From an uncultured Verrucomicrobiota bacterium (lineage in GTDB: Bacteria; Verrucomicrobiota; Kiritimatiellia; JAAZAB01): a stretch of 64,000 bases of DNA. A model generated the notes under the pieces. That model did no database searches and was not told where the DNA came from. It saw only the letters and a list, made by a program, of their open reading frames with translations. Made by a program: the position numbers and the translations under genes. Positions 9,876 through 10,314 of the stretch are shown one piece after another. How positions within the stretch are numbered: the first letter of the stretch is position 1; each line of letters begins with the position of its first letter. Where the stretch lies: the NCBI GenBank assembly GCA_964444425.1, contig CAYUHK010000006.1, positions 5,424-69,423 on the forward strand, in the 5' to 3' direction.

Positions 9876-9904
9876 TTGACAATATTCTAATATTCTGCAG
9901 AATG
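9876..9904 (+). promoter_or_regulatory. putative sigma70-like promoter (TTGACA-16-CAGAAT) that overlaps palindrome copy 1 and faces the ArsR-family gene
   Basis: TTGACA at 9876-9881, spacer, then CAGAAT at 9898-9903; it sits 120 nt upstream of the 10024 start. Confidence 0.3.
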
Positions 9905-9910
9905 TTAGAA
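9885..9910. promoter_or_regulatory. palindromic operator-like element, copy 1 (TTCTAATATTCTGCAGAATGTTAGAA; one mismatch to a perfect palindrome)
   Basis: Read directly from the sequence: inverted repeat centred on CTGCAG; located in the divergent htpX / ArsR-family intergenic region. Confidence 0.6.
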
Positions 9911-10023
9911 CTTGGCGCGGGCGGCGGTATAACTGGGTTGGCGTCAAGCTCATAGCGCAAATCGGCTCAGCGGCGCATCTGGTCAGCTAGGCGGCAAGAG
10001 CATATTGGAACAGGGGCCCTGCG

Positions 10024-10290
10024 ATGCAGACACCCAAACAATTAGAGCGTTATTTCAAGGGAGCGGCCAACCATCGCCGCATAGCCATCCTGAAAGTCGT
10101 GGCCATCCAGGCCGACATCAGCGTTGCTGGAATCGCCCAGGCCCTTAATAGCAATTTCAAGACCATATCGCAGCATACGCGTGCATTGGTGCAGGCTGGT
10201 CTCTTGAATAAACGTTATCGCGGCCGTCAGGTTATCCACCGGCTTTCGCCGTACGGCAAGGCATTTTTAAAGTTCATGAAAACATTCTAA
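10024..10290 (+). CDS. ArsR/SmtB-family winged-HTH transcriptional regulator (88 aa; no Cys or His metal-sensing residues)
   Basis: HRRIAIL...SVAGIAQALNSNFKTISQHTRALVQAGLL matches the ArsR-family HTH; the gene is bracketed by two copies of the palindrome. Confidence 0.7.
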   Translation: MQTPKQLERYFKGAANHRRIAILKVVAIQADISVAGIAQALNSNFKTISQHTRALVQAGLLNKRYRGRQVIHRLSPYGKAFLKFMKTF

Positions 10291-10314
10291 TATTCTGCAG
10301 AATATTAGAATGTT
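10281..10314. promoter_or_regulatory. palindromic operator-like element, copy 2 (perfect 34-bp palindrome AACATTCTAATATTCTGCAGAATATTAGAATGTT); it overlaps the stop codon of the ArsR-family gene
   Basis: Read directly from the sequence; the sequence is its own reverse complement. Confidence 0.6.

Follow-up and report, generated by a model that had tools for sequence, protein, structure and literature searches.

We analysed a stretch of 64,000 nucleotides (hereafter the window) from an uncultured Verrucomicrobiota bacterium of the lineage Kiritimatiellia (contig CAYUHK010000006.1, positions 5,424 to 69,423 of the forward strand, assembly GCA_964444425.1), in which a gene for an 88-amino-acid winged helix-turn-helix (wHTH) protein lies between two copies of an AT-rich palindrome, with a third copy elsewhere. 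The combination of palindrome and wHTH gene looks like an undescribed repeat-element system rather than a small stress regulon; no description of it was found in Rfam or in the literature searched. We assign a probability of roughly 0.65 to an old and widespread two-part system, composed of a small DNA-binding protein and its cognate family of dispersed palindromes and not of a conserved regulon. Judged by comparison with known systems, the best reading is a repeat family resembling REPIN/RAYT or Rickettsia palindromic elements (RPE), in which an autoregulated DNA-binding protein would take the place of a transposase.

Palindrome copies in the window

There are three copies of the 26-mer TTCTAATATTCTGCAGAATATTAGAA in the window, with one mismatch in copies 1 and 3 and none in copy 2 (10285-10310), as an earlier note made from the sequence had stated. 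In 100 dinucleotide-preserving shuffles of the window there was no match, even with up to three mismatches. The distance between copies 1 and 2 is exactly 400 bp (repeat family D6), and all three copies share a TTCTAAT variant that is specific to the window. Copy 2 is indeed a perfect palindrome over the stop codon of the wHTH gene, although its length is 36 bp and not the 34 bp given previously; the TTC TAA inside it encodes F88 and the stop. As RNA, copy 2 folds at -21 kcal/mol (z=-6.4), and it is a candidate second operator and/or transcript-end hairpin. Copy 3 is located, as described before, between copA and a FAD-oxidoreductase gene, both encoded on the minus strand. It lies in their 559-bp spacer, 347 bp past the copA stop and 188 bp ahead of the FAD-oxidoreductase start, and is directly followed by TATAAT at 57982-57987; a promoter scan of that region gave no promoter-like site near copy 3 on either strand.

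Table 1. Positions of the palindrome copies and associated features in the window, and alleles of the pyrC loop in retrieved loci (L numbers).
Feature	Position or locus	Strand	Description
Promoter-like TTGACA-16-CAGAAT	9876..9903	+	10/12 matches; faces the wHTH gene
Palindrome copy 1	9881..9910 (core 9885-9910)	unstranded	one T.G asymmetry, core position 7/20; candidate operator of the wHTH gene
wHTH gene, 88 aa	10024..10290	+	ArsR/SmtB fold; no Cys, no alpha5 metal ligands
Palindrome copy 2	10280..10315	unstranded	perfect 36-mer, AAACATTCTAATATTCTG then CAGAATATTAGAATGTTT; overlaps the wHTH stop codon
Palindrome copy 3 (solo)	57954..57983 (core 57956-57981)	unstranded	one T.G asymmetry, core position 4/23
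pyrC allele	L067, L100		ATTCCAACATTCTGCAGAATGTTGGAAT
pyrC allele	L136		ATTCTAGTATTTTGCAAAATACTAGAAT
pyrC allele	L137		ATTCTAATGTTCT-CA-AGAACATTAGAAT
pyrC allele	L140		TATGCTAGTGTTTTGCAAAACACTAGCATA
pyrC allele	L135		imperfect copy
pyrC alleles	L138, L139		empty

Conservation and age of the cassette

The cassette, in which a palindrome is followed by the 88-aa gene and by another palindrome on its stop codon, is found in Patescibacteria (Candidate Phyla Radiation, CPR), Kiritimatiellia, Verrucomicrobiota and Lentisphaerae. In regulator loci of CPR, Kiritimatiellia and Verrucomicrobiota the palindrome thus accompanies the regulator, a point that the earlier note had raised as a question for related genomes. 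At least 850 relatives of the 88-aa protein exist. Among the 120 best, identity is 70-80% and the length is 88 aa in nearly all; they are encoded by Patescibacteria (Giovannoni-, Sung-, Harrison-, Lipton-, Brenner-, Taylor-, Yanofsky-, Kaiser-, Jorgensenbacteria and others) and Kiritimatiellae. The palindrome flanks the wHTH gene on both sides in every locus retrieved via the protein. Among regulator loci obtained from a palindrome scan, the upstream copy is present in nearly all that have enough flanking sequence and the downstream copy in most; in about 20 of 35 regulator loci F88 and the stop codon are part of the latter, which is found 5-50 bp further on in the remainder.

The GC content of the wHTH gene, both overall and at third codon positions (GC3), tracks that of the host genome from 0.42 to 0.57, and identity at third codon positions between lineages is 0.43-0.57, that is, saturated. 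The wHTH proteins are 75-84% identical between lineages and the AT-rich palindrome is about 100% identical, in hosts of 27-60% GC. For comparison, TilS encoded in the window has its nearest relatives in metagenome-assembled genomes (MAGs) of Verrucomicrobia, Kiritimatiellae and Lentisphaerae, with identities of 50-62% and no higher, which places the window in a bacterium of the Planctomycetes-Verrucomicrobia-Chlamydiae (PVC) group. Minor palindrome variants are common to the sites of one genome. Based on the host-tracking GC, the saturated synonymous sites and the conservation of both protein and palindrome, we conclude that the system is old, resident and strongly mutually constrained, and that the cassette is not a recent horizontal arrival. 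Additionally, the palindrome has no match in IMG/VR and the protein has none in phage or plasmid collections; a phage or plasmid vehicle was therefore rejected.

Restriction-modification (R-M) and defence genes are often encoded beside the cassette, in variable regions (L006-L009, L011, L012, L061, L095); they include MmeI/Eco57I-like proteins, an N6_N4 methyltransferase with MvaI/BcnI, AbiE, and PIF1 with an MTES_1575 nuclease. One of these cassettes (L095, JAWAZI010000013.1, GC 0.30) is from a MAG labelled 'Candidatus Pacearchaeota archaeon', so that either the binning is wrong or a DPANN archaeon carries the cassette. In 5 of about 33 loci (L011:10326-10757, L017:5776-6171, L112:848-1483 and two more) the gene right after the regulator encodes TspO/MBR, with the downstream palindrome between the two genes, and TspO of L112 also contains an in-frame copy. 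TspO is the only hint of a recurrent functional partner of the regulator.

The upstream copy overlaps the promoter of the wHTH gene

Copy 1 lies over a promoter-like element that faces the wHTH gene, which confirms an observation of the earlier note: its -35 hexamer borders on the palindrome, which contains the -10 hexamer. In the loci from PVC bacteria (the window, L010, L021 and L031), TTGACA likewise abuts the left edge of the palindrome, and the internal CAGAAT is in the -10 position. The distance from the end of the upstream copy to the ATG is 17-35 bp in most CPR loci, and this interval contains a -10-like hexamer. At least 10 loci, by a hand count, have the outer TTRGAA of the palindrome 17 bp upstream of this hexamer, which is a -35-like spacing and implies a leaderless wHTH transcript. 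A TAnnnT box 16-18 bp beyond TTRGAA is present on 6 of 17 regulator-facing sides versus 5% of random positions (p=1e-4). The same test applied to solo copies, meaning those with no regulator nearby, gave 4-11% versus 5%, which is background, and solo copies were therefore rejected as promoters.

Promoter overlap of the upstream copy was seen in every lineage examined. Autorepression is the natural reading of a copy that overlaps the gene's own promoter. As far as sequence can tell, the 88-aa protein almost certainly binds the palindrome, and repression of its own promoter is well supported by this geometry. The autoregulation proposed in the earlier note is thus upheld at this level, while the small dispersed regulon that went with it is not. 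A separate strong promoter-like site (TTGACA-17-TAGAAT, 11/12 matches) is located on the minus strand at 9583-9611, 73 bp upstream of the htpX start and about 275 bp away from copy 1.

The 88-aa protein

The assignment of the protein to the ArsR-family winged HTH proteins agrees with a match to Pfam HTH_5 (24.8 bits versus a cut-off of 22); NCBIfam HTH_metalloreg scored 47.7 bits, under its 55-bit cut-off. The best sequence relatives in PDB (phmmer) are ArsR-family proteins (2kko, 5.5e-5; SmtB, 5e-4). The AlphaFold2 model (pLDDT 86) has the order alpha1-alpha2-alpha3-alphaR-beta1-beta2-alpha5, and SmtB, CzrA, CadC and HlyU are its top Foldseek matches in PDB (E 3e-5 to 1e-4). AspA is a weak sequence match (E 0.67) and a structural match at rank 41. 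The protein has no N-terminal extension beyond the wHTH fold.

A metal or metalloid site (alpha3N Cys or alpha5 His/Asp/Glu) is absent: there is no Cys, alpha5 (YGKAFLKFMKTF) has no ligand residues, and the three His (H17, H51 and H72) are at ordinary ArsR-family positions off the alpha5 metal site. Since both Cys and the alpha5 ligand set are missing, the protein is not a classical metal sensor, in agreement with the earlier note, and it is at best a non-metal-sensing member of the ArsR/SmtB family. Family scans matched wHTH families only and gave no HUH motif or other features of HUH Y1 transposases. Membership in a defence system was considered and rejected, as PADLOC matches were only to the wHTH of Csa3/CARF proteins. 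A role as an R-M controller (C) protein was also rejected; the fold is ArsR-type and not Xre-type, the window copy has no flanking R-M genes, and elsewhere such genes are neighbors in some loci only.

Anatomy of the repeat and sister families

We derived a consensus and examined covariation using 137 non-identical palindrome sites. The conserved unit is 38 bp long (-5 to +32 relative to the 26-mer) and reads A-N-AACA-TTCYAAYATTCT-GC-AGAATRTTRGAA-TGTT-N-T. It is a 12-2-12 inverted repeat, in which four 8-bp units, (AACATTCT)x2 then (AGAATGTT)x2, surround a GC centre, with the unit consensus (AACATTCY)(AAYATTCT)-GC-(AGAATRTT)(RGAATGTT). The arms covary both at positions 4/23 (CG 83, TA 46, TG 7, CA 2; Fisher p=1e-26) and at positions 7/20 (CG 117, TA 10, TG 7, CA 4; Fisher p=3e-8), and CG and TA variants coexist in single genomes, even within one cassette. 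Individual copies reach 42-52 bp; over all sites pairing beyond the 38-bp unit is near background, and a long outer stem was rejected as a general feature.

The palindrome and its protein have relatives of the same design. Paralogous wHTH genes (33-39% identical, 89-94 aa) are flanked by palindromes of their own: at L040 the paralog (1444-1713) has TTATTCTCTAATTCGAGCGAATTAGAGAAGAA on both sides and the paralog at L039 has TATTCTAGTGTTTTGCAAAACACTGGAATA on both sides, in each case with the downstream copy over the stop codon. Further symmetric variants, with CTCAAG, CTTAAG or CTATAG centres or with changed inner arms, are scattered in the retrieved loci. A profile search gave 158 superfamily clusters (50% identity, E<=1e-10), nearly all of 80-125 aa. 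There were no catalytic fusion partners among the 150 best superfamily representatives, which are single-domain except for one 535-aa protein with repeated matches.

Two longer arrangements were observed. At L015:3456-3480 three extra tandem AGAATGAT octamers are found right after the right arm of the palindrome, which suggests that the 8-bp unit can be iterated. In CAZVCF01, a low-GC MAG labelled 'Gammaproteobacteria' (probably a mislabel), the palindrome is centred in a repeat of about 120-160 bp (L050:6797-6913, L084:1929-2044, L075:2024-2179 and L133:3614-3773). A-tract units CAAAATNN, which recur about every 8 bp, make up its left side and mirror-image T-tracts its right side. Identity among the four copies is 85-91%, and this repeat looks like a long MITE-like form (MITE, miniature inverted-repeat transposable element) or an extended array of weak binding units.

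Number and placement of solo copies

The palindrome scan, conducted with TTCNAANATTCTGCAGAATNTTNGAA on one genome per species, gave at least 120 matches, and about 85 of the 120 listed have no regulator nearby. The density of solo copies is about one per 52-65 kb, or about 15-20 per Mb. According to the earlier note, many copies at unrelated positions without the regulator would point to a MITE or REP-like repeat. The solo copies largely fit this description, yet all genomes with solo copies that were checked do carry the regulator (JAUSHX01, JBAZEM01, JACPEK01, CAZDFQ01 and BEIL01).

Gene neighbors in the retrieved loci were obtained as simple longest-ORF calls, where ORF stands for open reading frame. 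Solo sites with callable neighbors are found 18 times between convergent, 7 times between divergent and 36 times between tandem genes, versus 7.3, 13.8 and 39.9 expected from the available intergenic bases (p=6e-5). Sites that face a gene end have a median distance of 25 bp to the stop codon, with 37 of 63 within 30 bp, and the stop codon is often within the outer stem of the palindrome (TAA-CATTC).

The neighborhoods do not point to a common function. All-against-all clustering of 134 genes next to solo sites gave pairs only and no shared family. A Pfam census of 108 genes from about 33 regulator loci gave no universal neighbor of the regulator (TspO 5, PIF1 4, scattered R-M genes) and no linked transposase, nuclease, recombinase or partition ATPase. 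The proposed regulon members htpX, dppF and the FAD-oxidoreductase cluster or copA fail to recur in any of the approximately 33 other regulator loci, and we do not retain that regulon.

The 12 nucleotides downstream of the palindrome contain T at 0.37 and A at 0.35 and form no U-tract. An intrinsic (Rho-independent) terminator was rejected, since the stem is AT-rich, the U-tract is missing and the terminator scan did not call it. In Rfam 15 (cmscan, E<=10, positions 9500-10700) only miRNA-hairpin look-alikes were found, at no more than 22 bits versus cut-offs of 65-140.

Sites are located within 100 bp of a contig end in 8 of the 120 listed loci, versus about 2 expected by a hand estimate. Loci at contig ends are L001-L004, L033, L037, L038, L049, L060, L099, L106 and L127; the first four are Logan contigs of the species of the window, all of which stop 19 bp past the wHTH gene, inside copy 2. 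Such ends could stem from the trouble that assemblers or sequencing have with perfect hairpins, or from rearrangement between copies.

In-frame copies in housekeeping genes

About 16 solo copies (about 16%) are found inside long ORFs, where they are translated as HSNILQNVGM nearly always and as FQHSAECWNV twice. Pfam domains flank the insert on both sides in PGK, FAD-linked oxidase, 6PGD-like, GT4 glycosyltransferase, TspO and TsaD proteins. FBA, MurD, MiaA and PrmC with an in-frame copy were identified from sequence motifs only, and PyrC, insert included, is annotated by the depositor as dihydroorotase. In three ortholog pairs (L067/L100, L040/L110 and L041/L111) the copy is at the identical position and remains a perfect palindrome between flanks that have diverged; one ortholog pair differs by a symmetric double change in the palindrome.

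The pyrC gene provides filled and empty orthologs of one site. Among about 80 Kaiserbacteria-type dihydroorotases with a readable loop, 48 have a short 'empty' loop (AAVPAGTP-like) and the rest have inserts. In the DNA, the inserts turn out to be intact palindromes that differ from one another but share one location, and the alleles overall are empty, intact of types A, B and C, or decayed (Table 1). A rough neighbor-joining tree (no support values) intersperses filled with empty alleles, and both kinds are also found within one clade of about 90% identity, as estimated by eye. Identity along the gene is mosaic, so the pattern may be due to allelic recombination, to repeated insertion at a tolerant loop, or to both. 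The net gain of filled over empty alleles is 21-48 nt. Neither a target-site duplication nor a clean insertion boundary was recognised, the filled/empty pyrC pairs being too diverged to show one (81% DNA identity in the nearest pair). Other inserts in the same loop are not palindrome-like (CQGDTLTWG, KNHQGVALMVSA and VSQTNRVSLTNRNA; P0126, P0129, P0128, P0168, P0233, P0163, P0164), and may be decayed or frame-shifted copies or unrelated insertions.

Other features of the window

The region 20000-26000 has a low GC content (0.465-0.49 versus 0.55-0.59 elsewhere) and may be a horizontally acquired island. At 45047-45670 there are five repeats spaced 138 bp, followed by a tandem duplication of about 1.2 kb (74-89% identity) that extends to 48113 (families D1-D5); this is probably a gene pair for a repeat-domain surface protein.

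Comparison with known systems

REP/REPIN sequences with their RAYT gene are dispersed short palindromes associated with a single-copy gene that is itself flanked by repeats (PMC3116915, PMC3337134, PMC5581495). For REPIN-RAYT, long vertical persistence and not horizontal spread has been described (bioRxiv 10.1101/2022.05.22.493013), and REP super-families are defined by a GTAG or CGTC tetranucleotide head (PMC3733652). The system described here is similar in that its repeats are mainly extragenic, its gene is flanked on both sides, several repeat families exist, each with a variant of the gene, and persistence is vertical. Unlike RAYT, however, the partner is a predicted 88-aa ArsR-fold DNA binder without HUH/Tyr nuclease features, and the consensus A-N-AACATTCY...RGAATGTT-N-T has no GTAG or CGTC head. 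Based on these two differences, the palindrome system is not a member of the REP family. It further differs from REPINs in that its copies, at roughly 15-20 per Mb, seem to fall short of hundreds, with about 16% of them in-frame inside genes, in that each unit is a perfect palindrome as opposed to an inverted pair of imperfect hairpins, and in its CPR and PVC hosts. As for MITEs, the whole unit here is an inverted repeat and no direct-repeat duplication was recognised.

The in-frame copies resemble RPE, reportedly described by Ogata and colleagues in Science in 2000, in being palindromes within coding genes that are translated as an extra peptide and that have filled and empty orthologs. RPE are 100-150 bp long and are not known from outside Rickettsia or with a cognate protein gene. 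The core described here is 34-38 bp long, occurs in at least two distant phylum-level groups and is paired with a predicted binding protein.

A 12-2-12 inverted repeat is the operator form of SmtB/CzrA-type repressors, and two dimers per operator have been reported for SmtB. Fold, a predicted operator over the gene's own promoter and the 12-2-12 repeat are shared with SmtB and CzrA (PDB 1smt, 1r1u, 6cda), while the absence of metal- or thiol-sensing residues, the additional site on the stop codon and the dozens of non-promoter sites are not. DNA uptake sequences (Neisseria DUS/ComP, Pasteurellaceae USS) have a density of about one per kb, and their reader is a surface pilin. They are comparable in that dialects co-vary with the binder, in that inverted repeats follow genes and particular frames are used inside genes, and in that spread by allelic recombination is plausible, given the mosaic pyrC; in contrast, there is one copy per 52-65 kb here and the binder is a cytoplasmic-type wHTH protein. 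Finally, omega protein with its heptads, ParR/parC and AspA are centromere-binding autoregulators that act on repeat arrays. They are likewise small dimers that bind short units, whether direct or inverted, and repress transcription from their own promoter, as the 88-aa protein is predicted to do. Here, though, no partition ATPase is linked and the sites are chromosomal, dispersed and also present in coding regions.

Proposed explanation and alternatives

The system that we propose would have two parts, a small homodimeric DNA-binding protein of the ArsR/SmtB fold and its cognate palindrome of 34-38 bp, which is probably bound by two dimers. Bound to the upstream copy over the core promoter, the protein would repress its own gene. 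The downstream copy on the stop codon would mark the 3' end of the cassette and may serve as a second operator for looping, as a hairpin or as a roadblock. Copy 3 and the other solo copies would be dispersed repeats that entered new sites by insertion and persist where they are tolerated, that is, after or on stop codons, between convergent genes and in-frame in loops of housekeeping proteins. Co-evolution between these copies and the resident protein would resemble that of REP/REPIN sequences and the RAYT gene.

Several points weigh against this explanation. Nothing indicates that the protein is catalytically active, and linked transposase, nuclease or recombinase genes were not found, so that the term 'mobile' is derived from insertion footprints alone. 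No target-site duplication or insertion boundary can be defined, the best filled/empty pair being 81% identical, and copies seem few next to the hundreds reported for REPINs. Allelic recombination could account for the scattered pyrC alleles, considering the mosaic identity and the unsupported tree, and the gene calls in the retrieved loci are of the simple longest-ORF kind. Additionally, orthologous solo sites that stay perfect amid diverged flanks argue for selection or function at each site and not for junk, and this pattern suggests that solo copies are more than debris.

A regulon in the strict sense, with htpX, dppF and the FAD-oxidoreductase/DUF488/flavodiiron cluster or copA placed under the control of the repressor via three operators, seems quite improbable to us. 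In its favour, the operator-on-promoter arrangement at the regulator is genuine and conserved, the FAD-oxidoreductase gene starts 188 bp downstream of copy 3, 5 of about 33 regulator loci have TspO as a neighbor, frequently separated from the regulator by the downstream palindrome, and 7 solo sites are in divergent-promoter placement. Yet divergent regions are depleted about two-fold and convergent ones enriched about 2.5-fold, solo sites have no -10 box at operator spacing beyond background, about 16 sites are inside coding sequence and no neighbor family recurs. In the window itself, the promoter-like site nearest to htpX is about 275 bp off and there is none near copy 3. The placement of solo sites could instead indicate a boundary function, in which the protein on solo palindromes acts as a roadblock or insulator against read-through at gene ends in compact genomes, and likewise on the 3' copy of its own cassette. 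The closeness to stop codons, the enrichment in convergent spacers, a hairpin without U-tract that would need a factor for termination, the perfection of orthologous solo sites and a regulator gene that always ends in or beside a copy are all in line with this. We nevertheless consider it unlikely: at about 15-20 sites per Mb most genes are without one, no gene end is within 100 bp of many of the sites, and a roadblock would be harmful at the approximately 16% of solo sites inside essential genes. Purifying selection on random insertions would yield an equal 3'-end bias, as has been described for REPs.

An element acting at the RNA level, as a 3' hairpin that stabilises or terminates the mRNA and is possibly read as RNA by the winged-helix protein, is very improbable. 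The hairpins are stable (-17 to -21 kcal/mol, z about -6), the arms covary, and of 17 asymmetric core pairs that could be decided 16 are G.U when read on the sense strand. This bias, however, is significant at two core positions only, is partly forced by the TTC-TAA stop and is gone in the outer stem (28 versus 24 overall). Moreover, there is no U-tract and no Rfam match, the upstream copy of PVC loci is in the promoter and would not be fully transcribed, copy 3 of the window is C.A on the transcribed strand, and the 12-2-12 architecture and ArsR fold point to binding of double-stranded DNA. Chromosome-organising or centromere-like sites, similar to parS/ParB, omega heptads or AspA, on which the protein would nucleate and which would be placed where they are least harmful, are an improbable explanation as well. 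Protein and site are conserved across phyla beyond housekeeping genes, sites are found inside genes, the protein gene carries its own sites, the 8-bp units are iteron-like (with the extras at L015 and the periodic A-tract/T-tract halo of about 150 bp in one genome), and AspA is among the weak sequence and structural matches. On the other hand, many close relatives do not have a given site (e.g., the empty pyrC alleles), neither a partition ATPase nor another partner is linked, and several specificities coexist in one genome.

Beyond the two-part repeat system that we favour, it is conceivable, though doubtful, that these elements are a self-propagating or self-maintaining class of DNA, in which a binding-only protein drives, or is indispensable for, both the copying and the long-term upkeep of its own sites across the chromosome, or else that they form a genome-wide architectural or boundary system conserved between CPR and PVC bacteria. 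If a self-maintaining class, it would comprise multiple co-evolving 'dialects' shared between CPR and PVC bacteria, with sites also inside essential genes.

Implications

The results are a warning that inferring a regulon from repeated palindromes in one window is unsafe. Pipelines now annotate these wHTH genes as generic 'ArsR/MarR regulator', and the palindrome can be flagged as a sequence at which metagenome contigs tend to end. If the two-part system is real, its protein and operator would be a simple orthogonal pair with natural specificity variants for synthetic biology. It would explain the inserts of 10-16 aa (HSNILQNVGM and relatives) in housekeeping proteins of streamlined genomes, and would extend the REPIN-RAYT idea, in which one gene is tied to a persistent repeat population passed on vertically, to a partner without a nuclease fold, which raises the question of how 34-bp palindromes get copied. 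CPR/Patescibacteria and PVC bacteria would then share an old and strongly conserved system of a repeat and its binding protein.

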